From Thermoplasmatota archaeon (GTDB lineage Archaea; Thermoplasmatota; Penumbrarchaeia; Penumbrarchaeales; Penumbrarchaeaceae): 64,000 nucleotides of DNA. Location: the NCBI GenBank assembly GCA_049472195.1, contig JBLIRG010000002.1, positions 5,184 through 69,183 on the forward strand. Direction: 5' to 3'. The notes beneath the pieces were generated by a model. The model was not told where the DNA came from and ran no database searches. It saw only the letters and a list, made by a program, of their open reading frames with translations. The translations under genes were made by a program, and so were the position numbers. This document shows, one piece after another, positions 2,570 through 61,191 of the stretch; the stretch's first letter is position 1; each line of letters begins with the position of its first letter.

Positions 2570-2754
2570 GTATTTTCACTGCACAGGCATGAACGTACCG
2601 ATTGATAGATAATCTTTGTATTATCAACACGTTTAAGCCCGGCTTAATAAAGGAACCCTATACATTTCATAAGTGATCTCATGCCGATCAACAGCGGAAG
2701 TGCAAGACCTTGACAAGGAAAAATGTAATAAGAGACATCTATCATTTCCCGTTA

Positions 2755-3828
2755 ATGGAACCAAAGGCGATCACAAAAATTCTGGACAGTTACGATAAAA
2801 ACGATCTGACCGTTACCACCGTATGTTCCCATTCCAGCCTTCAGATATTCCACGGCGCGAGGAAGGAAGGTATGAAAACTATGGGGATATCGATCGGCAG
2901 GGCTCCCAAGATTTTTGACGCGTTCCCCGCTGCAAAACCCGATTCCTTTCTGGTCCTGGATGATTACAAGGAGCTTCCGGATCATCTCGACGAGATCAGG
3001 AACAAAAACGGCATATTGATCCCGCATGGTTCATTCGTGGAATATCTCGGGGCGGACAATTTTCGGAACCTGATGGTTCCCACCTTTGGAAACCGAAACG
3101 TCCTGGAATGGGAATCGGACCGGAACAAGGAGAGGGTGTGGCTGGAGAGGGCGGGCATATCCATGCCCCGCGAGATCAAGGATCCGAAGAAGATCGACGT
3201 CCCGGTGATGGTGAAATACCAGGGGGCAAAGGGAGGAAGGGGTTTCTTCATAGCAAAGGATTACAACCAGTTCAAGATGGGTATCGATCACGAGCAGAAG
3301 TACAACATACAGGAGTACATCCTGGGTACCCGTTATTACCTTCATTTCTTCCATTCGCCCCTTAGGACGGATGGTTACAAGGTTGACGGGGCCAGGGGGA
3401 TCGTGGAACTGATGTCGATGGACCGCCGGGACGAGACGAACATAGACGAGATGTATAAACTGGGTTCCCAGGAGGAACTGAAGGAGCACGGTATATACCC
3501 CACATTCGTTGTGACAGGAAATCTTCCGCTCGTCATAAGAGAATCCCTCCTTCCCAAGGCATTCGAGATGGCAGAGAGCGTCGTCAGGGAATCGTACGAG
3601 CTGTTCGGGGGAATGGTGGGGCCGTTCTGCCTCGAGACCGTGGTTACCGATCAGCTGAAATTCAAGGTGTTCGAGATCTCCGCGAGGATCGTCGCCGGAA
3701 CCAATCCCTTCATATCGGGATCGCCGTATGCCGATCTCATAGAGGACGGCCTGTCAACGGGAAGGAGGATAGCCCAGGAGATCAAGCTGGGAGTCGGGCT
3801 AAACCGTCTTGATGAGATAATAACATAA
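2755..3828 (+). CDS. purP: FAICAR synthetase PurP (ATP-grasp)
   Basis: CSHSSLQIFHGARKEG, PHGSFVEY, GAKGGRG, VTGNLPLVIRESLL and FEISARIVAGTN motifs. ATG 2755 is preferred over TTG 2710. Confidence 0.93.
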   Translation: MEPKAITKILDSYDKNDLTVTTVCSHSSLQIFHGARKEGMKTMGISIGRAPKIFDAFPAAKPDSFLVLDDYKELPDHLDEIRNKNGILIPHGSFVEYLGADNFRNLMVPTFGNRNVLEWESDRNKERVWLERAGISMPREIKDPKKIDVPVMVKYQGAKGGRGFFIAKDYNQFKMGIDHEQKYNIQEYILGTRYYLHFFHSPLRTDGYKVDGARGIVELMSMDRRDETNIDEMYKLGSQEELKEHGIYPTFVVTGNLPLVIRESLLPKAFEMAESVVRESYELFGGMVGPFCLETVVTDQLKFKVFEISARIVAGTNPFISGSPYADLIEDGLSTGRRIAQEIKLGVGLNRLDEIIT

Positions 3829-4391: not shown

Positions 4392-4446
4392 ATGGGACAA
4401 CTTTAATAGAATGATCGACAATCCCCGCCCTCGTTCGGGGTATGCC

Positions 4447-6495
4447 ATGCGATTAATTATCTGTGAGAAGAACAACGCCGCCAGGAGAATATCCTCGATC
4501 CTATCGGGCGACAATGTATCGACGGTCAAGAGAGGCAGGGTCCCCCTATACCAGTTTCAATGGGAGGGAGAGGAAACCTACTCTGTGGGTCTCAGAGGCC
4601 ACATTCTGAACATGGATTTCCCGAAAGAGTACAACAACTGGTCTGCGCACAGGCCGGCAGACCTCATAGAAGTCAAACCGGAGAAGATGGTATCCGAGAG
4701 ATCGATCGCCTCGGTGCTGAGGTCCCTGTCCAAGGAGGCGGATTCCGTATATGTCGCGACAGACTACGACAGGGAGGGGGAGCTTATCGGCCTGGAGGCG
4801 GTCGAGTACGCGTTCGGAGAGAACTCTGTGAAAACATCGAAGAGGGCGCGCTTCTCATCACTGACACCCAGGGAGATAACGGCATCATTTTCGGACCTGA
4901 CCGGGATCGATGTACCTCTGGCCAAGGCGGCGGAGACCAGACAGATCATCGATCTGTACTGGGGCGCCACCCTGACCCGTTTCGTTTCGCTGACATCCGA
5001 CAGGATGGGTCATGATTTCCTGTCAGTCGGCAGGGTTCAGAGCCCGACCCTTGCGATAATCGTGAAAAAGGAGAGGGAGATAAGGGATTTCCAGCCGGTT
5101 CCGTACTGGACGATCGAAGGCTCCTTCGAGAAGGACGGAAGCGGTTTCAACGGAGTGCATACCCACGGTGACTTCCTGGAGGAGAATGGAGCCCTGGAGA
5201 TCTTCAACAGGATCAAGGACGCAAAGCAGGCGGAGGTCACTTCCGTCACCGGAAAGGAGAGGGATGACAGGCCGCCCATTCCCTTCAATACCACTCACCT
5301 TATAAGGGCAGCCAATACCATGGGAATGTCCGCATCACGCATCATGTCGGTCGCGGAGGATCTGTACACCGAGGGATATATTTCCTACCCGAGGACGGAC
5401 AATACTGTATATCCGGTATCGCTGGATCTCAGGGCTTCGACCGAGATGCTTGCGCACGGACCATACAAGAAGGCGGCGGATCACATACTGGGAAAGGACC
5501 GGATCATTCCGACCCGCGGAAGCAAGGAGACCACCGACCATCCTCCGATCTATCCGACATCATATGCCGCGAAAAACGAGCTTTCGGATGAAAAATGGAA
5601 GCTGTACGATCTGATAGTCAGACGTTTCCTGGCAACGCTTCACGATCCTTCGAAGGTTAGGATCACAAGGGTCAATATGAACGTTGGAGGAGAGATATTC
5701 GCTGCCTCCGGGGTCAGGACATTGTATCCGGGCTGGAGGGAGATCTACACATTCTCGAAGATCAAGGAGACGACGATACCTCACATAGAGAAGGGGGACG
5801 TGATCTCGGTTGAGGGGATCGATCTGAATGCGAAACATACGAAACCCCCCAAGCGGTACTCCCAGGGAGGCCTCATTCAGGAAATGGAGAGGCTCGGGCT
5901 CGGAACGAAGTCCACGAGGCACGAGATAATCAAGAAACTCTATGACAGAAGGTATATCGAGGATTCCCCCCCCCGCCCCACCATGTCGGGTGATGCCCTC
6001 GTTACATCTCTTGAGAAATATGCACCCCATATAACCGATCACGACATGACCGCAAGACTTGAGCGGGATATGGAGAAGATCAGCCAGGGGGCGCTGACGG
6101 AGGAGGAGGTCCTCGACGAATCGAAGGGAATGCTCAAAGAGATCATGGATGAGATGGAGACGAACAAGGTCGATATCGCCAAGGATCTCAAGGAGGCATT
6201 CCAGATCCAGGATGTTGTTGGTTTGTGTCCCAGGTGCAATCATCCCATGCTCCTTGCAAGGTCCAAATGGGGGAAGAGGTACGTGAGATGCTCCATGTCG
6301 CCCGGCTGCTCGAAATCGTATCCTCTCCCGCAGAAGGGTAAGATATCATTCACCGAGAACAGGTGCGGGGATTGCAGATCACCGATGATAGTGATGTACC
6401 GCAAGGGAAGACCTCCCTTCGAGACATGCATCAATCCCGCCTGTCCCACCAAAGCGGGCGGGAAGGGAGGCGGTGGTGGATCGAATGACCGATAG
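4447..6495 (+). CDS. topA: DNA topoisomerase IA with C-terminal Cys4 Zn fingers
   Basis: LIICEK Toprim start, ATDYDREGE, SVGRVQSPTL, GYISYPRTD (catalytic Tyr), GLGTKSTR and C-terminal CxxC pairs. Confidence 0.95.
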   Translation: MRLIICEKNNAARRISSILSGDNVSTVKRGRVPLYQFQWEGEETYSVGLRGHILNMDFPKEYNNWSAHRPADLIEVKPEKMVSERSIASVLRSLSKEADSVYVATDYDREGELIGLEAVEYAFGENSVKTSKRARFSSLTPREITASFSDLTGIDVPLAKAAETRQIIDLYWGATLTRFVSLTSDRMGHDFLSVGRVQSPTLAIIVKKEREIRDFQPVPYWTIEGSFEKDGSGFNGVHTHGDFLEENGALEIFNRIKDAKQAEVTSVTGKERDDRPPIPFNTTHLIRAANTMGMSASRIMSVAEDLYTEGYISYPRTDNTVYPVSLDLRASTEMLAHGPYKKAADHILGKDRIIPTRGSKETTDHPPIYPTSYAAKNELSDEKWKLYDLIVRRFLATLHDPSKVRITRVNMNVGGEIFAASGVRTLYPGWREIYTFSKIKETTIPHIEKGDVISVEGIDLNAKHTKPPKRYSQGGLIQEMERLGLGTKSTRHEIIKKLYDRRYIEDSPPRPTMSGDALVTSLEKYAPHITDHDMTARLERDMEKISQGALTEEEVLDESKGMLKEIMDEMETNKVDIAKDLKEAFQIQDVVGLCPRCNHPMLLARSKWGKRYVRCSMSPGCSKSYPLPQKGKISFTENRCGDCRSPMIVMYRKGRPPFETCINPACPTKAGGKGGGGGSNDR

Positions 6496-22511: not shown

Positions 22512-23144
22512 CTATAGGGTCGCCTCGAACTCCTTGATCTCCATCTTGAAGTTCTCCAGCTTCTCGGAGTCTTCCCTGGCCTTGAAATATTCCTTGGTCA
22601 AAAGCCAGTAAACGACGGCCAGGGATCTGCGGCCCTTGTTGTTTGCCGGGATCACGAGGTCGACGAATTTCGTCTCGTTGTTCGCGTCGCAGAGTCCGAT
22701 GATGGGGATCTTGGAGTTGACCGCCTCTTTCAATGCCTGCTGATCGGCGGCGGGATCGGTCACGACCAGGATCTTGGGCTCAACGTAGTCCTCCAGGTCG
22801 GGATTTGTGAGGGTGCCGGGAACGAACCTTCCCGGGAAGGCATTGCATCCGATGGAATCGGAGAATTTCCGGACCGGTCTCTGGCCGTACTGCCTGGCGG
22901 ATACCACCAGTATGTCCTCGGGATCGTACTTGGAGAGCATCTTCGCGGCAACCCTTATCCTCTCATCGGTCTTCTTGATATCCAATACGTAAAGACCGTC
23001 GGATCGAACCTTGAATATGAAGTCCTTCATGTCGGCGCTCTTCTGCTGTGTGCCAATGTGCACTCCGGAGGTCAGGTACACGTCCTCCTCGATGAGGAGT
23101 TCACTTGCCGGCTGTTCGTCTCCCATTTCAATCATCTCCGTCAT
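22512..23144 (-). CDS. rps2: 30S ribosomal protein S2 (uS2), archaeal type
   Basis: [23 protein letters not shown] and [10 protein letters not shown] motifs. True start is 23144, overlapping the rpoK stop (ATGA). The ORF-track extension to 23318 is spurious. Confidence 0.95.
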
Positions 23145-23302
23145 TCCCGCTTCACGGTCATGGGGATCATACCGTCCCTGAGTTCCGCCTCCGCTGTTTT
23201 CAGAGGATCGATGTCGATGGAGGAACCCACCGGGGGTGCTCCCAGCGACAGTTGAAGCGTTCTCGCGCCGAGGACCCGTGCCTTTTCGTATTTGGTCATC
23301 AT
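23141..23302 (-). CDS. rpoK: DNA-directed RNA polymerase subunit K (Rpo6), 53 aa; absent from the ORF track
   Basis: Hand translation gives [53 protein letters not shown]. This matches the T(R/K)YE.AR..GARALQ..MGAP / P.T(V/I)RR signature of RpoK. Confidence 0.93.
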
Positions 23303-23441
23303 TTTTGATCCCTCTCATGGCCGTGTACCATATATAGGGGCTGTAGGGAAGGGTGTAAACTGGTATCCAATATAAACCTTGTGGGAGGCCATATGGGATG
23401 AAATGAGAACTGAGTTACATTAACAGAAAATATAGGATATG

Positions 23442-51918: not shown

Positions 51919-52024
51919 CTGTTTTTATTCAAATTGATAGGTTGATCTATTCATTTTCGTTCAGGTAATTTCGACCAGTGGTTTCATATTGGCGGAGTTG
52001 ACTTACCCCTCGGTGAAGATCAAG

Positions 52025-53818
52025 ATGCCCGGGAATGTGAAACTGCCCGATAGGAGCGATGTACCGTTGGAGCATCGATGGGATCTCTCAAACTTGTACA
52101 GTAACGATGATCTGTGGGAGAAGGATCTGAAGAAGGTTGAGGGATCCATTCCCCGGATTTTAAAATTCAGGGGAAGATTGGCCGGATCGATCGATGATCT
52201 GTCTGACTGTTTGAGATACATCGATGACCTCTCCCGGCTGATGGAGAAGGTTTACAACTATTCCCATCTCCGTCATGACGAGAATACCGCTGATACGAAT
52301 TACCAGGGTATGGACGATCGTGCAAAGAGGATGTTGGTGAATGTCGATACGGCCATGTCGTTCATGGTCCCTGAGATCCTGTCCATGAAAAAGGAGGATC
52401 TGGTCAAGCTTCTGGAGGAACCGAAACTCCGCTTTGCCTACGTTCCCCTCCGTGAGATCATCCGGAAGAAGGATCACTTTCTTTCCGAAAAGGAGGAAAG
52501 GATCATGTCAATGGCGGAGGAACCCCTGGAATCTCCGTCGAAGATCTTTCGAATGCTCAACGATGCGGATCTGAAATTTCCGAATATCACGGACAGGTCG
52601 GGAAACGAGGTGGAGATTACCCACGGCAGGTTCATCGGTTTCATGATGGACCAGGACAGAAATATCAGAGAAGATGCATTTCGCGGTTTCTATTCCAGCT
52701 ACACCGCACATAAAAACACATACTGCGCCGCTCTAGAAGGGGATTTCAAGAAGAGAGTGTTCAGATCAAGGATCAGGAATTACTCATCGTCACTCGAGGC
52801 ATCCCTTGACAGCGATGAGGTAACACCGGAGGTTTACACCGGTCTGATCGATGCGGTAAGAGAGAAACTTCCGGCCATGTACAAATATGTTCAGCTCCGG
52901 AAGAGATCGCTGGGACTGGACAGGCTTCATATGTGGGATGTATACGCTCCCCTGGTAAAGGATTTTGAAAAAGAGGTCACGTTCGACGAAGCGTCGGAAA
53001 TAGTTATCTCTGCTCTGGAACCGCTCGGGGAGGAGGTCCAGGATATCATCAAGGAAGGTCTGTCCGGGAGGTGGATAGACAGGTTCGAGAACAGGGGAAA
53101 GAGAAGCGGGGCTTACTCGTCCGGATGTTACGATTCCCCCCCTTATATCCTTATGAATTACGATAACAAGGTCAAGGACCTGTTCACCCTGGCCCATGAA
53201 ATGGGACATTCCGTCCACACATTCCTTTCGAACAGGAACCAGCCCCATATGACGGCGGACTACAGGATATTCGTAGCCGAGGTGGCATCCACCGTGAACG
53301 AGATCCTCCTCATGAATTATCTCAGAGGCAAATGGACCAGTATGGAGGAGAGGACCTTCCTCGTCAATCATCATCTGGAAGGGTTCAAGGGAACCGTGTT
53401 CAGGCAGACGATGTTTGCCGAATTCGAGAGGGATGTGAGCGTTATGGTGGAGAATGGGATACCCCTCACGCCCGATTCGCTCTGTGAACTTTACGGAAAG
53501 CTAAACGGAGATTATTTCGGACCCGATGTGGAGCTCGATGAGGAGATCAGAATGGAATGGGCCAGGATACCCCACTTTTACTATAATTTCTACGTTTACA
53601 AATATGCCACCGGTTATTCCAGCGCAACCGCCATTGCCAGGAGAATTCTCGAGGGGGGGGACCTCGAAAATTATCTGGCCATGCTCAAGGCAGGTGGTTC
53701 CAAACCTCCGCTGGAGCTGCTCAAGGGAGCCGGTGTTGATCTTGCCACACCGGAACCCGTTAGATCGGCATTGGAGGTATTCTCCGATCTCGTGGACGAG
53801 ATGGACGGCCTGATTTGA
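52025..53818 (+). CDS. pepF: Oligoendopeptidase F (M3B)
   Basis: WDLSNLY, GKRSGAYS, PYILMNY, TLAHEMGHSVH, FVAEVAS and WARIPHFYYNFYVYKYATG motifs. Confidence 0.94.
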   Translation: MPGNVKLPDRSDVPLEHRWDLSNLYSNDDLWEKDLKKVEGSIPRILKFRGRLAGSIDDLSDCLRYIDDLSRLMEKVYNYSHLRHDENTADTNYQGMDDRAKRMLVNVDTAMSFMVPEILSMKKEDLVKLLEEPKLRFAYVPLREIIRKKDHFLSEKEERIMSMAEEPLESPSKIFRMLNDADLKFPNITDRSGNEVEITHGRFIGFMMDQDRNIREDAFRGFYSSYTAHKNTYCAALEGDFKKRVFRSRIRNYSSSLEASLDSDEVTPEVYTGLIDAVREKLPAMYKYVQLRKRSLGLDRLHMWDVYAPLVKDFEKEVTFDEASEIVISALEPLGEEVQDIIKEGLSGRWIDRFENRGKRSGAYSSGCYDSPPYILMNYDNKVKDLFTLAHEMGHSVHTFLSNRNQPHMTADYRIFVAEVASTVNEILLMNYLRGKWTSMEERTFLVNHHLEGFKGTVFRQTMFAEFERDVSVMVENGIPLTPDSLCELYGKLNGDYFGPDVELDEEIRMEWARIPHFYYNFYVYKYATGYSSATAIARRILEGGDLENYLAMLKAGGSKPPLELLKGAGVDLATPEPVRSALEVFSDLVDEMDGLI

Positions 53819-54141
53819 TCATTCGGGTTCATGTCTTTCCCATCTCTCAAGCGCCCGGGCAAGTTCACCTGAGGACATGTCTCTCTCCTCCAGCAGGATC
53901 CCGTCCATCACTCCATCGATGGCATACATGACCGCTTTTATCCCTACTCTGGTTCCGTCAGGATGACCTTATATTCCCCAGCTAACCGGCGGACCCGGAT
54001 CGGATCCAGATATATCGACAACCCTGGGATCAGACCTTGATGGAGCTATCCGGATGATACTGGGAAAGCGTTCATGATACGGTCCCAGACCTGTTCCGGG
54101 TATAGATACCACGATTATAGGTTCCGATCAGGTCAGAAGGT

Positions 54142-54357
54142 ATGAAATATGCGCAAAGGGGAAATACGAGAACGTGATATGAGCGCCTGTCGGAACGGTT
54201 GGAAATAAGATGAAAACTGCGCAAAGGGTGCGCACGAGAGAGACTGAAACGACGGAGAAATATGTAAAACCGCACGGCCAGGACGGGATGTTGAGGATCC
54301 GGGATGGATCCCCCGGCGCGATGAAGAGATGATAAGGATGCCGCGCCGATGCCGTGC
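54142..54357 (+). promoter_or_regulatory. Structured 5' leader of pnp: imperfect 30-nt direct repeat plus a three-stem junction
   Basis: Repeats at 54142-54171 and 54210-54239 (23/30 identical). Stems are 54272-54278/54351-54357, 54295-54300/54306-54311 and 54314-54320/54342-54348. Confidence 0.45.
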
Positions 54358-54406
54358 ATGTGAATGAGGGGTCGGGGAAAACGGCCAAATAAACAGAGGG
54401 AATCGC

Positions 54407-56656
54407 ATGACGATCAAGACATTTGAGACAGATTTTGCAGGTAAGAAGCTGATAATAGAATACGGCAGGATGGCGCATCAGGCCGGAGCTGCGGTGACAG
54501 CCAGGATGGGTGATACCGTGGTACTCGCCTCGGCAACCATGTCCAGATCCGGCCGGGAGGGAATGGATTTCTTCCCCCTCATGGTGGATTACGAGGAGAG
54601 GTACTACGCCAAGGGGCTCATAAAGGGTCCGAGGTACATGAAGAGGGAAGGAAGGCCCTCCAGCGAGGCAGTTCTGATAGGTAGGATGATAGACCGAGGT
54701 CTTAGGCCGCTCTTTCCCGACGGACTCAGGAACGAGGTTCAGGTTATCTGCCTGCCTCTAAGCCTTGACGAGGAGAACAGGCCCGACGTTGTGGCAATGC
54801 TCGGAGCCTGTGCAGCCCTTCATATATCGAACATACCTTTTAACGGACCGATCGCGGGATGCAGGATCGGGATGGTAACAGGGGACATGATAATCAATCC
54901 CACTGTCGAGGAACTCGAATACTCAGAACTTCAGCTGACCCTTATGGGAGACGGAGAGCGCGTGACAATGGTTGAATGCGAGGCGAGGGAACTCGATGAT
55001 GAAACCACCATTGAAGCGTTCAGGGTGGGAATGGAGGCCTTGGGCCCCATCGCGAAATTCTTCGACGATATAAGAAAGGAGATCGGGATCGAGAAAACAC
55101 CTGCTGATCAACTCCAGTTCAGGGGAGGATTGACCGAGGAGGACGAGGATGTCATCAAGAAGATGAAAGCCGCCCTGAAGCCTTCGCTGAAAAAATATCT
55201 GTTCGACAAACCCATCGGGACCAAGGGAGAGAGGTTCCGGACGCTAGAGGAACTTGAGGATAAGGTCGTGGATAAGCTGAAGAAGAAGCTCACCACCAAG
55301 GATCGCGATGAAGAGGCAACCGAGAATTACCTCAGAGGGCTTCTGGATCATTTCTTCCATGAGTATATCGAAGAGGAGGTTACCCTTTCGATTCTCGACA
55401 GCGATCTGAGGGTTGACGGGAGGAAGCTCGACGAGATCAGGCCCCTATCGGCGGAGGTAGGTGTCATTCCGAGAACACACGGTTCCGGACTTTTCGCCAG
55501 GGGAGAGACCCAGATACTCACGATCGTAACTCTGGGTTCTCCCAGGGATGATCTGTCGATCGAGACCATGGAGAACGAGGGATCGAAGAAATATTTCCAT
55601 CACTACAATTTCCTGCCATACTGCGTTGGAGAGGTCAAACCGCTCAGGGGTGCGGGAAGGAGGGAGATTGGTCACGGAGCCCTTGCGGAGAAAGCCCTGA
55701 AACCGGTTCTCCCTAGCACGGCGGACTTCCCATATACCACGAGAGTGGTCAGCGAGGTAATGGGGTCCAATGGATCTTCATCCATGGCATCCACGTGCGG
55801 ATCGACCCTTGCGCTCATGGATGCAGGCATACCGATCAGCTCTCCCGTTGCAGGAATAGCCATGGGTCTTGCATCCGACGGGAAGAGATGGAAGGTACTA
55901 ACCGATCTTCAGGATCTTGAGGACGGTCCCGGAGGCATGGATTTCAAGTTCACTTCAACACGCAACGGGATAACGGCCGTCCAGATGGATACTAAGACAA
56001 GAGGCCTCTCCAAGGAAATGATAGAGGCGACCTTCCCGCAGATGAGGAAGGCCATCAACGAGATCCTGGATGTGATGGAGAAGGCGATACCCGAACCGAG
56101 ATCCGAGCTATCCCCGTATGCCCCCCGGATGATCCACATGATGATCGATCCGGAAAAGATCGGTGAGGTCATAGGACCAGGAGGAAAGGTGATCAGGGGA
56201 ATGTGTGACGAGCTTGGTGTGGATATCGACGTAAGCGATGATGGGACGGTGCTGATCACTTCCGTGGACGCCGAAGCGGCACATCAGGCGGAGGAGCGCA
56301 TACGCGGAATTGTGAAGGTGGTCGAGGTCGGGGAGGTATACGAGGATGTCGAGGTCGTCAAGATCATGCCTTACGGCGCATTTGTGAGGTTGACCCCAAG
56401 CACCGATGCCATGCTTCACGTTTCCGAGCTGAAATGGGAAAGGGTCGAGAAGGTAACCGATGTGGTTAACCTCGGTGACAGGCTAACCGTGAAGGTGATA
56501 GAGATCGAAAGAGGCAAGGTCGACGTATCCCTTAAGGCGCTGACACCGATGCCGGAGGGCTATCGCAGGGACAGACAGTCCAGAGGCCCCCCCCGCAGAC
56601 CTCAGGGGAAGGGCGGTTCAAGGAACCAGTCCAGGAGAAAACCCCAGAGGCGGTAA
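54407..56656 (+). CDS. pnp: Bacterial-type polyribonucleotide nucleotidyltransferase (PNPase): two RNase PH domains, KH and S1
   Basis: FFPLMVDYEERYYA, KREGRPS, RMIDRGLRPLFP, RTHGSGLFARGETQ, RREIGHGALA, SNGSSSMAS and EDGPGGMDFK motifs. KH IGEVIGPGGKVIR and S1 MLHVSEL. Confidence 0.97.
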   Translation: MTIKTFETDFAGKKLIIEYGRMAHQAGAAVTARMGDTVVLASATMSRSGREGMDFFPLMVDYEERYYAKGLIKGPRYMKREGRPSSEAVLIGRMIDRGLRPLFPDGLRNEVQVICLPLSLDEENRPDVVAMLGACAALHISNIPFNGPIAGCRIGMVTGDMIINPTVEELEYSELQLTLMGDGERVTMVECEARELDDETTIEAFRVGMEALGPIAKFFDDIRKEIGIEKTPADQLQFRGGLTEEDEDVIKKMKAALKPSLKKYLFDKPIGTKGERFRTLEELEDKVVDKLKKKLTTKDRDEEATENYLRGLLDHFFHEYIEEEVTLSILDSDLRVDGRKLDEIRPLSAEVGVIPRTHGSGLFARGETQILTIVTLGSPRDDLSIETMENEGSKKYFHHYNFLPYCVGEVKPLRGAGRREIGHGALAEKALKPVLPSTADFPYTTRVVSEVMGSNGSSSMASTCGSTLALMDAGIPISSPVAGIAMGLASDGKRWKVLTDLQDLEDGPGGMDFKFTSTRNGITAVQMDTKTRGLSKEMIEATFPQMRKAINEILDVMEKAIPEPRSELSPYAPRMIHMMIDPEKIGEVIGPGGKVIRGMCDELGVDIDVSDDGTVLITSVDAEAAHQAEERIRGIVKVVEVGEVYEDVEVVKIMPYGAFVRLTPSTDAMLHVSELKWERVEKVTDVVNLGDRLTVKVIEIERGKVDVSLKALTPMPEGYRRDRQSRGPPRRPQGKGGSRNQSRRKPQRR

Positions 56657-56665
56657 TCCGCCAGA

Positions 56666-57037
56666 TCACCCGAAAAGCAGGACACCTATCACAATATGAA
56701 CCGCAAGGCTCAGCGCAAGGGCTATCTTGAAGGGGATCTTCGATGTCTTGTGCCTGAACAACACCATCCCTAGGGTTCCCCCAATGAATCCACCTAACAC
56801 GAAAACCAGGAAAAACAGTTTTTCGGGCGTTCTGAGCTTTTCCGCTTTGGACGCGATCTTATCCCATCCCATAAGCATGAAAGCAGTCAATCCAGCAGAA
56901 ATGAGCCATGCTAGATACGGATGGATCCCTGTGAATATGATCAGGGGGATGAAGAGTGACCCGTGGAGAAGGAATGAAGCCAAGGAATGGACAAGCCATG
57001 CGTTTCTATCATTTATTCCGTGCCTTTTCCTAGCCAT
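56666..57037 (-). CDS. DUF1294-family membrane protein
   Basis: LMGWDK..S...LRTPEK.FF...LGG..G..LGMVLFRHKTSK motif. Confidence 0.85.
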   Translation of the reverse strand: MARKRHGINDRNAWLVHSLASFLLHGSLFIPLIIFTGIHPYLAWLISAGLTAFMLMGWDKIASKAEKLRTPEKLFFLVFVLGGFIGGTLGMVLFRHKTSKIPFKIALALSLAVHIVIGVLLFG

Positions 57038-57143
57038 GTGAGATCTTCCCCTGCTATCGGTAATAATGATACGAATTTTTGTGTTATTTCCATAACAAAT
57101 ATATACCGAGATCTGATCAGTTCGGTCAAGGGGAGGCATATAT

Positions 57144-57950
57144 ATGGTAAACGGAGGAGGAAACCGAATCGTTCAATCGGTCGGTCTGGAGAAGGTTTAC
57201 GATACAGGTTCCGTCAAGGTGCATGCATTGAAGGGCATAGATCTGAATGTGTCCAAAGGTGAGATGGTCGCGATCATGGGGCCGTCCGGCTGTGGAAAGA
57301 CCACTCTGCTGAACTGCCTTTCAGGTTTGGATGAACCAACGGTGGGGAATGTTTTCATTGAGGGAACCGATCTCGCCAAGATGAAGGACGATCAGAGGAC
57401 CGAGTACAGGGCCCGCCACATGGGTTTCGTGTTCCAGTTCTACAACCTGCTACCGGTACTTACGGCAATAGAGAATGTGGAGATGGTTCTCCTTCTGGCC
57501 GGTGAGAAACCGAAGAATGCCAGGACCAAAGCCCAGAAAGCACTCGATACCGTGGGCCTAAACGGATACGAGAAGCACAGACCGTCGCAGCTGTCCGGTG
57601 GTCAGAGGCAGCGGGTAACCCTGGCCCGCGCTCTCGTCAACGATCCCAAGATAGTATGGGCAGACGAACCCACGGGAGACCTCGACAAGAGGAACTCCAA
57701 TGAGGTGATGGGTCTAATGAGGAATCTCAACCGGGATCTGAACATGACGATCGTCCTTGTCACCCACGATCCGGATGTCGCATCAAAATGCAGACGCATC
57801 ATCCACATGGAAGACGGGAAGATAGTAAAGGATGTCCCGATCACCGCAAAGGATGCCCTTAAGCATCCCAAAACCGGAGAATACTCCATGACCGGAGAGA
57901 AGGACGCCGGAGCCGCGAGGATATCGCTGCAGCAGAAAGCGTCACTTTGA
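57144..57950 (+). CDS. ABC transporter ATP-binding protein (LolD/MacB-type)
   Basis: [36 protein letters not shown] and VTHD motifs. Confidence 0.95.
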
Positions 57951-57963
57951 CCGGGGTGATGGA

Positions 57964-60900
57964 ATGTCCCTGAAAAAAGCTCTCAGCGTATTTTCCGAGA
58001 TCATGTTGATGATCTTTCTTCTGGCATTGATATTGGTGGTGATATTCGGTCTGTATTTCATCCCCGGGGAATTGAAGCCTTTCGTAACGGTTATCGCTCT
58101 GGTTCTGCTGCTCGTTACTATATTCTGGATAGTATTGCTGGCCTTCCTGCACAGGCTTCAGTTCAAGATGGGATTCCGTAATCTCATCAGGCACAAGGGG
58201 GATACGGTAATTGCCATATTCGGATTCATGGTGGGAACCTCCATCATATGTTCGTCAATGGCCATCGGAGATACCATGGGTTCGATGATCGAGGATCTGG
58301 TCTACGACGCCTATTATCTCACGGACGAGTACATGGTGATCAATGACGGGAACGGAGATCCGATCGATATCAACGGAACACTGGCTTCCGAGATATCAGA
58401 TATTGCTTGGAAGATGGAGAGCGAAGATCTGATTGACGGGGTTTCCTGGGAGTATCAGAAGGATTTCTCGGTTGTGGACAATCAGACCATGCTCTTCGAA
58501 CCCGTCGTAACATGCCGGGCCTTGAATCCTTCGACCTACGATGGATTCGGATCGATAACATCTTCCGGATCAACACTTTCATACGACCTGGGTCCCGACG
58601 AGGCATACATGGGAAAGGACCTGTCGGAAAAGCTGGAGTCCGGCGTGGGAAGCGTTGTGACCGTAATGGCCGGAATGCAGATGAAGGAGTTCAGGATCGT
58701 GTCTCTCGTTGATGAGAACGGAAGGGGTGCGAGTCTCGCCGGCGCGGACCTGTATTTAAGCTTCTCATCCATATGGGGGCTGTCCAACGTTACTCCGGAA
58801 GAGGAGGGCCCCGTCGGTGACGGCAGAAACTGGGAGGGAGGAATATACAATATCCTTTTGATATCAAATGAGGGCGGAGTGGTGGAGGGAGGCGATCTCT
58901 GCTCCGAGGTGGTAGACAGGCTGGAGGAGGATCTAAGGGAGATCGAGCACCCCCTGGGCGGGGATTCGGCTTTCGAGTTCAGCGAGACGAAGAAGTCGAG
59001 CGTTGAGATGAGCAAGGACGGAATGGAGATGTTCACCACCATGTTCCTCGTCCTTGGCACATTCAGCATAATTGCCGGTATTACCCTGATAATAAACATC
59101 TTCGTGATGCTGTCGGAGGAGAGAAGGGAGGAGATGGGAATATCCAGGGCCGTGGGTATGAAGGGTAAGCACCTTAGGTTGATGTACCTTTTCGAGGGAA
59201 CGATATATTCGCTCATATCATCCTTCGTGGGGGTAATACTGGGAATCGTTTCCGGACTTGGAATCATATGGGGGCTCAATTCGATCTTCAGGTCGATGGG
59301 TGTAGAGGGGCTCAACCTGCTTGAAAATTATACGGTGACACCGTTATCCATGGTTCTGAGCTTTGTTGCAGGATTCACCATCACCATCACAACAACACTT
59401 TTCATCACGAGAAGGGTGGCCAAACTGAATATTGTATCCGCGATAAGAAGCACCCCCGTTCCTCTGAAAAGGCCGTTCTTGGTAACGTTCACCCAGAAGC
59501 TTTGCGGGGTCTATAACGTCAGAACCTGTTCTGGTGACGGATCGCCTCTCTCAAAAATAATTCAATATATGTTTGATAAGACGACAATGGTTGGATTTTA
59601 TTTCATAATACTTGGTATACCAATTGCTCTGATCGGGATACTGCTGAAAATGATGGCTCCCACCAGCCTCGGGATATCAATGTTGCTTATCGGACTTGCC
59701 CTGGTGATTAAATACTTCACAAATGCCAGGATAACATACACGATTGCCGGAATACTCGTCCTAATATTCTGGATAGTACCATTGCCCGTTTTTGAGGATT
59801 TTTCCGGAGACCTGGAAATGTTCATCCTGTCCGGAATATTCATGGTCACTTCCGGCGTTCTTCTACTGGTCTGGAATACAGATATCATTTTGTGGGTCGT
59901 GGAGAGGATTGTCTCACTGATCGGTCTGGCACCATCCACGATAAAAATGGCCGTATCCTATCCCATCAAGAAGAGGTTCCGAACCGGTGTGACCATATTC
60001 ATGTTCGCATTGATCATATTCACGATAACTGGAATGTCCATGATAGTCCACATCCTGAACGTTAATATCGAGGGATTCGAGAAGACGCTGGGCGGCGGTT
60101 ATTCCATAATCGGCGTTTCCAATATGGGTATTGACGATCTGGAAACGGCCGTTCTGGAGGGAGAGAGTTTTCTAACGGAGGATGTCGACGTTTACGCCAG
60201 GATCGACTGGGATAACACGGTTTCCATGACATCGGGAGTACTGGTGATCAACAGATCTTATACCTTTCAGGGAATGGAGTTCGAGGACGTTTTTCCATAT
60301 CCGTGCAACGGCGTTAACAATGAGTTCATCGAGAAGAACACTTACGGGTTCTCAACCGTTGACTGGTCCCTCGTTCATCCCGAAGGAAACGGTGAAAGGA
60401 CCGATCGTGAGGTCTGGAAAGCCCTCGAAAGGAATCCGGACCTGGTCGTTCTCGACGGAATGATGGGCGGCGACAGCCCGTTCGGTCCCGCGGGTCAGCC
60501 CGGGATCATGGAAGTAGGGGATGTAATCGAACTCGAAGCGGTTGGCGGCCTGCTTGTAAACAAGACAATTGTCGGCTTTACCGAGCAGATAGGCATCAAT
60601 GGTGTCTTCATGTACAATTCATCGGCAGAGTCCGATTTCGGGGTCACCGAGAAGAAGATCCACCTGTTTACCCTGAAGTCAGAGGGAGATGAACAGGAGA
60701 TCGCCAACGATATCAAACGGTCCCTTCTCAGATACGGACTATTCACATTCATAATCAAGGATATCATTGAGGAGATCCTTGAGGCGCAGAACGCGTTCTT
60801 CAACCTGTTCAACGCATTCCTGTCCCTCGGCCTTGTGATAGGAATAGTCGGTCTGGGCATAATAACCCTGAGATCCGTTTACGAGAGGAGGCACGAGATA

Positions 60901-61191
60901 GGAATGATGAGGGCCATAGGATTCAAGAGAAAAGCGGTTATCGCCTCATTCCTCGGGGAATCGGCATTCATCTCGGGATCGGGTCTCATAATCGGGTCCG
61001 TCCTGGGTATAATACTGGGATGGATGCTCTGGCGGGATTCTTTCGGGGAGACAATGACTGAATTCGGTGTTCCGTGGGTGAAGATCCTTGTGATCGCCGG
61101 GATCGCCCTGTTGTTCGCCCTTCTAGCATGTATACCGCCCTCGTTCAGGGCCTCCAGGGTCACACCGGCCGAAGCTCTGAGATACGAATGA
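57964..61191 (+). CDS. FtsX/MacB-like ABC permease with two extracellular domains
   Basis: ERREEMGISRAVG and ERRHEIGMMRAIG motifs, multiple TMs, and a C-terminal RASRVTPAEALRYE. Confidence 0.9.
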   Translation: MSLKKALSVFSEIMLMIFLLALILVVIFGLYFIPGELKPFVTVIALVLLLVTIFWIVLLAFLHRLQFKMGFRNLIRHKGDTVIAIFGFMVGTSIICSSMAIGDTMGSMIEDLVYDAYYLTDEYMVINDGNGDPIDINGTLASEISDIAWKMESEDLIDGVSWEYQKDFSVVDNQTMLFEPVVTCRALNPSTYDGFGSITSSGSTLSYDLGPDEAYMGKDLSEKLESGVGSVVTVMAGMQMKEFRIVSLVDENGRGASLAGADLYLSFSSIWGLSNVTPEEEGPVGDGRNWEGGIYNILLISNEGGVVEGGDLCSEVVDRLEEDLREIEHPLGGDSAFEFSETKKSSVEMSKDGMEMFTTMFLVLGTFSIIAGITLIINIFVMLSEERREEMGISRAVGMKGKHLRLMYLFEGTIYSLISSFVGVILGIVSGLGIIWGLNSIFRSMGVEGLNLLENYTVTPLSMVLSFVAGFTITITTTLFITRRVAKLNIVSAIRSTPVPLKRPFLVTFTQKLCGVYNVRTCSGDGSPLSKIIQYMFDKTTMVGFYFIILGIPIALIGILLKMMAPTSLGISMLLIGLALVIKYFTNARITYTIAGILVLIFWIVPLPVFEDFSGDLEMFILSGIFMVTSGVLLLVWNTDIILWVVERIVSLIGLAPSTIKMAVSYPIKKRFRTGVTIFMFALIIFTITGMSMIVHILNVNIEGFEKTLGGGYSIIGVSNMGIDDLETAVLEGESFLTEDVDVYARIDWDNTVSMTSGVLVINRSYTFQGMEFEDVFPYPCNGVNNEFIEKNTYGFSTVDWSLVHPEGNGERTDREVWKALERNPDLVVLDGMMGGDSPFGPAGQPGIMEVGDVIELEAVGGLLVNKTIVGFTEQIGINGVFMYNSSAESDFGVTEKKIHLFTLKSEGDEQEIANDIKRSLLRYGLFTFIIKDIIEEILEAQNAFFNLFNAFLSLGLVIGIVGLGIITLRSVYERRHEIGMMRAIGFKRKAVIASFLGESAFISGSGLIIGSVLGIILGWMLWRDSFGETMTEFGVPWVKILVIAGIALLFALLACIPPSFRASRVTPAEALRYE

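Follow-up and report, generated by a model that had tools for sequence, protein, structure and literature searches.

A bacterial-type polynucleotide phosphorylase in one class of Thermoplasmatota archaea and the decay of the exosome among its carriers

Introduction

The archaeal exosome, an Rrp41/Rrp42 hexamer with an Rrp4/Csl4/DnaG cap, shares its chemistry, its RNase PH (PH) ring architecture and its S1/KH cap with polynucleotide phosphorylase (PNPase), and both machines carry out phosphorolytic 3'-5' decay as well as A-rich or heteropolymeric tailing. Reviews state that Archaea lack PNPase, and they record exosome loss in Halobacteria, Methanomicrobiales and Methanococci only (PMC7144898, PMC8481954). 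In the exosome-less archaea that depend on RNase R, this hydrolytic enzyme takes the place of the exosome, and RNA is not polyadenylated (PMC1635327, PMC7144898). Here, we analysed a PNPase gene (pnp) in a 64,000-nucleotide stretch of DNA from a Thermoplasmatota archaeon (hereafter the window), which corresponds to C24:5184-69183 of a 2.79 Mb metagenome-assembled genome (MAG) of 111 contigs with 86% completeness and 1.1% contamination.

We confirmed that the window contains a genuine full-length bacterial-type PNPase gene on an archaeal chromosome. Taken as a whole, the observations are, with good probability, best explained by a working PNPase, one ancient transfer from a bacterium of the Candidate Phyla Radiation (CPR, or Patescibacteria) to an archaeon, and ongoing displacement of the exosome thereafter. 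We also lean towards a more specific reading, in which the window's class is midway through swapping its exosome for a CPR-derived PNPase that would run phosphorolytic 3'-5' decay and tailing, with at least three independent degradations and all stages still living. The enzyme itself is a member of a known family; its evolutionary case is unusual and informative.

The window encodes a full-length PNPase

The pnp product exceeded the cut-offs of the two NCBIfam equivalog models, NF008805 (836.1 bits, cut-off 471) and TIGR03591 (835.4 bits, cut-off 525), and the matches run end to end (residues 6-711 against profile positions 2-688/689). Pfam recognized two RNase_PH domains, RNase_PH_C, KH_1 and S1, and the all-alpha PNPase domain gave a weak, sub-threshold match (20.1 vs 24.6 bits; E 9e-4). 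In the AlphaFold2 (AF2) monomer model, which took 42 homologues as input (predicted local distance difference test, pLDDT, 81.9; predicted template modelling score, pTM, 0.75), the all-alpha domain appears as four helices (residues 198-332) despite this Pfam score. Pfam and AF2 together give the domain order PH core 1, all-alpha, PH core 2, KH and S1, in agreement with a first-pass annotation of the window which had listed all five PNPase domains. When the model was compared with the PDB by Foldseek, the top 50 structures were all PNPases (template modelling, TM, scores of 0.70-0.87). Two related identities were examined as well: the actinobacterial guanosine pentaphosphate synthetase I (GPSI) model TIGR02696 gave 582.6 bits against a cut-off of 1106.75, and the Rrp41 model TIGR02065 gave 100.3 bits against 318.7, on one of the two PH domains, so that the product is neither GPSI nor Rrp41. 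The first RNase PH-like core is non-catalytic in PNPases. The gene and the parts of its product (amino acid positions, aa) are as follows.

54407..56656, +, pnp, polynucleotide phosphorylase, full length; ATG-started, uninterrupted open reading frame (ORF) of 749 aa
54407..54997, +, first RNase PH-like core, aa 1-197; Pfam RNase_PH, with RNase_PH_C at 147-211; AF2 beta/alpha elements
54998..55402, +, all-alpha linker, aa 198-332; AF2 helices 198-226, 244-267, 273-292 and 302-332, pLDDT ~79-97
55433..56101, +, second RNase PH core (the catalytic one), aa 343-565; Pfam RNase_PH 343-476; phosphate/RNA-binding motifs GRREIGHG and GSNGSSSMA
55901..55948, +, active-site motif TDLQDLEDGPGGMDFK, aa 499-514; aligned to the solved PNPase 5YJJ
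56135..56305, +, KH domain, aa 577-633; Pfam KH_1, E 1.8e-10
56324..56530, +, S1 domain, aa 640-708; Pfam S1, E 3.7e-13
56543..56653, +, basic Arg/Gly/Pro-rich C-terminal tail, aa 713-749; predicted disordered, pLDDT <50

Residues D506, D512 and K514 align with D486, D492 and K494 of E. coli PNPase, which are Mn2+ ligands (PMC2723993). They are invariant in our alignments A1 and A2, and the D-x5-D-x-K metal arrangement pointed out in the first-pass annotation is therefore retained. R418, R419, H423, S457 and S459 of the second PH core are likewise invariant in A1 and A2, and S458 is invariant in A2. Two glycines in TDLQDLEDGPGGMDFK, G507 and G510, are a signature of the clade: EDGxGGMDFK was found in all seven CPR sister rows of the tree described below and in 45 of the 46 archaeal-clade rows (all those with a readable motif), and in none of about 200 other sampled PNPases, which show ED[HFA]xG[DE]MDFK. 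The earlier expectation that the unusual LTDLQDLEDGPGG variant would help to identify the donor was borne out by this restriction to the archaeal clade and its CPR sisters. The tail, with 14 K/R among the last 40 residues, follows a conserved PxPEGY junction; a basic tail of this kind occurs in almost every archaeal copy listed and in some CPR sisters, and typical bacterial PNPases are without it.

Judged by these features, the enzyme would work as a homotrimer and as a phosphate-dependent 3'-to-5' exoribonuclease, whose reverse reaction would add heteropolymeric tails from nucleoside diphosphates. RNA would enter via the KH/S1 cap, which the basic RG-rich tail may lengthen.

Distribution of PNPase in Thermoplasmatota

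Of the 37 genomes in the window's class, 32 have a PNPase (31 copies over the cut-off and one truncated copy just below it), vs only one of 364 other sampled Thermoplasmatota genomes. This outlier (G050) carries a PNPase of the same clade with the clade-specific signature. The class genomes without PNPase are three incomplete ones (68-83%) and both members of family f2. In one genome with the gene, G033, a closed contig of 3.58 Mb carries pnp together with the exosome operon. Homologues in the databases are labelled 'Thermoplasmata archaeon' or 'Ca. Proteinoplasmatales archaeon SG8-5'.

The first-pass annotation had treated its finding as void if pnp proved widespread and already described in this archaeal lineage. 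The survey of related MAGs that it proposed revealed the former: the gene is widespread, and public records already annotate these archaeal proteins as PNPase. As to description, we found no paper on PNPase in this lineage or on exosome loss in Thermoplasmatota in a library of about 8.4 million papers, subscription-only papers not among them.

Phylogeny and origin of the archaeal PNPase

In an exhaustive search of 1.84 billion representative sequences, the nearest non-archaeal relatives were 46-53% identical to the pnp product, and those with names belonged to Uhrbacteria, Abawacabacteria, 'Patescibacteria group' (two) and Gracilibacteria. We reconstructed a maximum-likelihood tree (IQ-TREE, LG+C20 with posterior mean site frequencies, PMSF) of 76 rows and 706 columns. 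All archaeal PNPases formed a single clade (support 100/100) on a stem of 0.40 substitutions per site, within which family f1 was monophyletic (98/93) and the gene tree tracked the host families. The archaeal clade is itself part of a 24-row clade (100/99), whose only named CPR members are an Uhrbacteria (P0122) and a 'Patescibacteria group' (P0128) sequence and whose other sisters are two unlabelled sequences and three MAGs (L025, L026 and L037); branching inside this clade is unresolved. The next-outer groups, Peribacteria and a 1.05 Mb contig, are joined with moderate support (87/81 and 90/85), and the remaining named CPR rows belong to an unresolved polytomy with other phyla. Both the PxPEGY junction and the RG-rich tail are common to the archaeal clade and some of the CPR sisters.

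The archaeal PNPases arose a single time inside a clade of CPR type and have descended vertically since. In this phylogeny against bacterial PNPases the archaeal copies form one clade beside CPR rows, and the Patescibacteria origin that had been no more than a guess in the first-pass annotation is now supported by the nearest named relatives (Uhrbacteria and 'Patescibacteria group'), the 100/99 clade and the shared signature. Its notion of an old, ameliorated transfer is supported too, by host-like codon usage, by presence in 32 of 37 class genomes, by a tree ordered by host family and by conserved synteny with ABC transporter genes (see below). It is proposed that the ancestor of one Thermoplasmatota class, which includes SG8-5/'Proteinoplasmatales'-like MAGs, received the gene in a single transfer from a Patescibacteria bacterium related to Uhrbacteria. 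After the transfer, the gene would have lost its bacterial rpsO operon context, gained host codon usage and been inherited vertically.

One PNPase labelled '[Eubacterium] cellulosolvens' (L132; GCA_975970955.1, CDLUMC010000227.1) also branches within the archaeal PNPases. The genes beside it on the contig are of an archaeal kind (a DUF35/thiolase pair, DUF973 and an ADP-forming acetyl-CoA synthetase), for which reason we rejected a back-transfer to bacteria; L132 probably represents an archaeal contig that is mislabelled or a contaminant.

Loss and decay of the exosome

With a presence threshold of E <= 1e-40, Rrp41 was found in 13 of 37 class genomes vs 356 of 364 elsewhere in the phylum (3/12 vs 248/250 when only high-quality genomes were counted). 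The presence of PNPase was strongly associated with the absence of Rrp41 (Fisher test, p = 6e-19, kinship ignored). SBDS, whose gene lies immediately 5' of the exosome genes, was recovered from 35 of the 37 class genomes. Fourteen genomes, from family f8 and from genera g3-g7 of the window's family, have an operon Pop5-PsmA-SBDS-dn102-dn123-dn355 from which rrp4-rrp41-rrp42 are precisely excised, some 50-130 nt being left between SBDS and the next gene. Csl4, which is unlinked to this operon, is missing in exactly the same lineages. Because SBDS is retained in nearly all class genomes, the operon deletions are clean and the unlinked Csl4 was lost together with the operon genes, the absence of Rrp41 is not an assembly artefact.

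Intermediate stages were observed as well. G034, which is already without Rrp41, contains a truncated Csl4 remnant (G034:C7:57629-57904; 63 bits, profile positions 2-93) with an in-frame TGA, which looks like a decaying pseudogene. Three other genomes, G028 (f5), G032 and G036 (f7), have sub-threshold Rrp41 matches (L125:4422-5162, L127:3681-4550 and L128:3773-4744, respectively), each in a gene adjoining an Rrp42-like gene. All three have substitutions at the two catalytic aspartates, along with degraded phosphate-binding motifs (DRRS and GTR); for G036, the HMMER alignment to the T. acidophilum structure gives D->K, D->V and R->V. The Rrp41/Rrp42-like pair of G032 and G036 has moreover been relocated away from the SBDS-Rrp4 operon. 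From their sequences, these genes would form catalytically dead exosome rings.

On the host tree, four changes of exosome state are required, and the starred branches force at least three. At least three of the exosome degradations are independent. Family f2, the sister of the window's family, has no PNPase, and its Rrp41 and Csl4 scores are among the strongest of the class. All class genomes of adequate completeness have at least one of the two machines; G020, a candidate for having neither, was rejected given that the whole pnp neighbourhood is absent from its assembly. The stepwise decay of the exosome is confined to PNPase-bearing lineages.

The window's own genome has kept its exosome. 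A search for rrp41, rrp42, rrp4 and csl4 returned all four, in a superoperon Pop5-PsmA-SBDS-Rrp4-Rrp41-Rrp42 on contig C23 and, for Csl4, on contig C52. Rrp41 (C23:24073-24897) scores 339.6 bits vs a cut-off of 318.7, is ~60% identical to solved archaeal Rrp41s and keeps the RPGxDRRS, GGTR and EDxxGEAD motifs. Since the Rrp4-Rrp41-Rrp42 operon and Csl4 are intact in the same genome, PNPase here appears to supplement an intact exosome. The first-pass annotation had left it at 'replace or supplement', and each half applies to a part of the class: supplementation in this genome, and in many relatives a PNPase with the exosome gone. Outside the window, the genome also contains an RNB-domain (RNase R/II-like) ORF of ~920-940 codons (C29:25287-26786), which is below the cut-off of the RNase R model (253 + 115 bits).

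The exosome subunits of this genome score lower than those of families f2 and f9 (Csl4 105.6 vs 188-192 bits), and its Rrp4 (186 bits, cut-off 200) and Rrp42 (230 bits, cut-off 280) fall below their models. This may indicate relaxed constraint, though the catalytic motifs are intact.

A stepwise course can be proposed from these states. PNPase would duplicate the chemistry of the Rrp41/Rrp42 exosome and thereby render it dispensable. The window's genome would represent the 'both' state, with an intact exosome, PNPase and an RNB-type RNase, and sister lineages the later stages, with dead-ring Rrp41, a Csl4 pseudogene and clean deletion of rrp4-rrp41-rrp42 accompanied by csl4 loss. Family f2 may have taken the reverse path, retaining the exosome and lacking PNPase. 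We infer that PNPase compensates for the lost exosome and that this redundancy allowed the losses.

Genomic context of pnp

The neighbouring genes and the archaeal markers on the pnp contig are located as follows.

2710..3828, PurP, archaeal marker on the pnp contig
4411..6495, archaeal topoisomerase I TopA, archaeal marker on the pnp contig
22512..23318, -, ribosomal protein uS2 of the eukaryotic/archaeal type; TIGR01012 281.8 bits, cut-off 211.5; archaeal marker
51989..53818, +, oligoendopeptidase F (M3 peptidase; pepF), upstream neighbour; Pfam Peptidase_M3 and Peptidase_M3_N
53819..54406, +, purine-rich spacer of 588 nt, promoter and candidate 5' leader; no convincing ORF
57144..61191, +, ABC transporter pair 3' of pnp; Pfam ABC_tran, FtsX and MacB_PCD
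57144..57950, +, ABC ATPase
57964..61191, +, MacB/FtsX-type permease

With uS2, TopA and PurP on the same contig, the PNPase gene does reside in an archaeal chromosome, as the first-pass annotation had it. Its remark that the codon style matches the neighbouring genes was also right: GC content at third codon positions (GC3) is 0.657 in pnp vs a genome mean of 0.659, and its codon-usage distance is at the 30th percentile among genome ORFs of similar length. The ABC transporter pair lies 3' of pnp in all eight family loci with enough flanking sequence (genera g4, g5 and g7). Because the same pair follows pnp in relatives and the closed contig of G033 holds both pnp and the exosome operon, pnp is taken as an inherited gene, and a chimeric join as very unlikely. 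A DUF1294 membrane protein gene (56666-57139, -) intervenes between pnp and the ATPase gene in the window, and in the g4, g5 and g7 relatives the ATPase gene is directly 3' of pnp with nothing between.

The bacterial rpsO-pnp arrangement is not present at this locus, where the upstream gene encodes an M3 peptidase, followed by the 588-nt spacer, and no S15 was found. Neither a scan for sigma-70 promoters and terminators around pnp nor a search for tRNA and integration-site signals in the window gave anything, the former yielding nothing above chance. In relatives of genera g4, g5 and g7 (L011, L013-L015, L017 and L019-L021), a TATA-like box, AAAACACTTATAA, lies ~300 nt before the pnp ATG. Just 3' of this box, the leader of these relatives contains a conserved RCRCAYAGG, which can pair with CCTGTGYG beside the GGTGAT ribosome-binding site (8 bp, with compensatory changes at three positions), and there is an internal covarying hairpin in addition. 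By analogy, this leader could be an autoregulatory element like the bacterial pnp leader. The window's own spacer is divergent from the g4/g5/g7 leaders, and the covariation is a feature of the relatives' leaders only; a structured leader in the window was rejected, as the spacer folds no better than shuffled sequences (z = -0.67) and there was no Rfam match at the pnp spacer/leader. The spacer of the window also contains an imperfect direct repeat with TGCGCAAAGGG, in two copies ~70 nt apart (54143-54245), and a 36-codon ORF (53819-53929, -) that abuts the pepF stop codon.

Alternative explanations

The source genome is a MAG with the fragmentation, completeness and contamination given above, a fact that speaks for an artefact in which pnp lies on a misbinned or chimeric contig and comes from a co-assembled bacterium. 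However, the 70-kb contig has archaeal genes on either side of pnp, the GC and codon usage of pnp are host-like, the gene recurs in 32 independent class MAGs on contigs of up to 3.58-5.2 Mb (the closed 3.58 Mb contig among them), the synteny 3' of pnp is conserved and the pnp phylogeny mirrors the host families. Contamination or chimerism was rejected on these grounds and is hardly credible. It is also improbable, if clearly less far-fetched, that the donor was not Patescibacteria, be it that another bacterial lineage gave the gene both to archaea and to some CPR, or that archaea gave it to CPR. Such scenarios can draw on the unresolved order within the 24-row clade, on the plausibility of exchange in either direction between CPR and archaea, which share sediment and groundwater habitats, and on the names of the seven sister rows, of which P0122 and P0128 alone carry CPR names while L025, L026 and L037 (genomes G402-G404) are labelled Planctomycetota or Gammaproteobacteria. 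Yet the genomes of these three MAGs measure 1.0-1.3 Mb, and the L037 locus shows a bacterial rpsO-NYN-pnp operon together with Mbov_0395-type pilin-like genes; these phylum labels are probably wrong. The next-outer Peribacteria and 1.05 Mb contig are also CPR, at their moderate support only. Transfer from an archaeon to CPR is disfavoured because the sisters keep the bacterial operon context; in addition, no sister row nests in the archaeal clade (100/100).

For the exosome losses, a different compensator has to be considered. PNPase could be resident and serve a separate role, e.g. in tailing, stress or cold adaptation, or nucleotide salvage, and an RNB-type RNase or aRNase J/aCPSF could cover the loss of the exosome. 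In haloarchaea and Methanomicrobiales, RNase R is accepted as the 3'-5' exonuclease after exosome loss (PMC7144898), and an RNB-type gene is present in the window's genome and in 18 of 19 exosome-less g3-g7 genomes (the exception being 68% complete). On the other hand, RNB-type genes occur patchily in the class (25/37) and do not track the exosome state, as illustrated by G024, which has a strong exosome, no PNPase and an RNB-type gene. The exosome-less f8 genomes G031 and G035 and the exosome-less genome G030 have no RNB-type match and an intact PNPase, which would thus be the sole recognisable 3'-5' exonuclease in f8 and G030; RNase R as a general compensator was rejected on this account. 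PNPase alone is present in every exosome-degraded lineage, and exosome loss is near-absent (8/364) in the PNPase-free remainder of the phylum. We therefore consider a non-compensating PNPase unlikely and prefer compensation by PNPase.

Several points weigh against a CPR donor, a working enzyme or displacement of the exosome. As to the donor, the bacterial backbone of the tree, at least 79 named genomes from many phyla, is a broad sample and not one of the closest genomes, so that bacterial sampling was not exhaustive. Among the seven nearest bacterial sequences, CPR names are limited to two, three have other phylum labels and two are unnamed, and the three other labels were discounted solely on the 1.0-1.3 Mb genomes and their context. 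As to the enzyme, the signature puts Gly at the near-universal Asp/Glu before MDFK (D490 in the GDMDFK of E. coli), and it is from sequence that we infer the enzymatic activity, trimer formation and in vivo substrates of the archaeal PNPase. As to displacement, the association between PNPase and exosome loss takes no account of kinship and comprises ~3-4 independent events; the host tree is based on four linked operon proteins only; three class genomes, all incomplete (68-83%), are without both PNPase and Rrp41; absences in MAGs are never fully provable; and the RNB-type RNase, which co-occurs with exosome loss in g3-g7, could share or carry the compensation.

Implications

The statement that Archaea lack PNPase is overturned for an entire class, and exosome loss of a new kind joins the cases already known. 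The case would be a rare and well-resolved displacement of a core RNA-processing complex by a horizontally acquired CPR homologue, with intermediates alive, and it would document the transfer of a housekeeping gene from Patescibacteria to an archaeon in which it later became fixed. If the displacement is true, these would be the first archaea with PNPase-run RNA 3'-end metabolism. Several questions become testable in this class, including the interchangeability of PNPase and exosome in vivo, the roles of Rrp4, Csl4 and DnaG after catalysis has been lost, the route to an inert PH ring such as that at the origin of the eukaryotic exosome, and the persistence of RNA tailing in exosome-less archaea.

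Comparison with known systems

The archaeal protein has the same five-part architecture as bacterial and organellar PNPases (S. epidermidis 5YJJ; E. coli 3GCM/7OGK). It is 40-47% identical to the solved bacterial enzymes (TM 0.70-0.87) and keeps their metal ligands and phosphate/RNA-binding motifs. Unlike bacterial PNPase, it is encoded on an archaeal chromosome without an rpsO partner, and has the EDGxGGMDFK variant and an RG-rich basic tail. Its nearest relatives are CPR PNPases (Uhrbacteria MBI4250177.1 and 'Patescibacteria group' MBL7058610.1; 44-53% identity, joined at 100/99), which share the GGMDFK signature with the archaeal copies, some of the CPR sisters also having the PxPEGY junction and an RGG-like tail. 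The single CPR locus that was inspected among the sisters (L037) is arranged as rpsO-(NYN)-pnp, whereas the archaeal copies are flanked by archaeal genes and, in relatives, preceded by a promoter with a TATA-like box.

The archaeal exosome is distantly homologous, as seen from the score of about 100 bits that PNPase obtains on the Rrp41 model. It is encoded by separate genes in a superoperon, whereas PNPase is one polypeptide predicted to act as a homotrimer, and the class shows either the coexistence of the two or PNPase alone. The inert PH ring of the eukaryotic Exo9 core has a parallel in the Rrp41 proteins of G028, G032 and G036, which are without the catalytic aspartates and the phosphate-binding arginines; the inert ring in archaea would be an independent event, and it occurs in relatives and not in the window's genome. 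No hydrolytic partner of the Rrp44/Rrp6 type was found for it, though no search was aimed at one.

Loss of the whole exosome complex is likewise known from Halobacteria and Methanomicrobiales, which have RNase R, and from Methanococci, which have no known 3'-5' exonuclease. As in the window's class, the loss in Halobacteria and Methanomicrobiales goes along with a bacterial-type 3'-5' exoribonuclease. In contrast to the archaea with RNase R, the candidate replacement in this class is a phosphorolytic homologue of the exosome, and all intermediate stages are extant. Because the candidate replacement is phosphorolytic, the capacity for RNA tailing may persist in these archaea.

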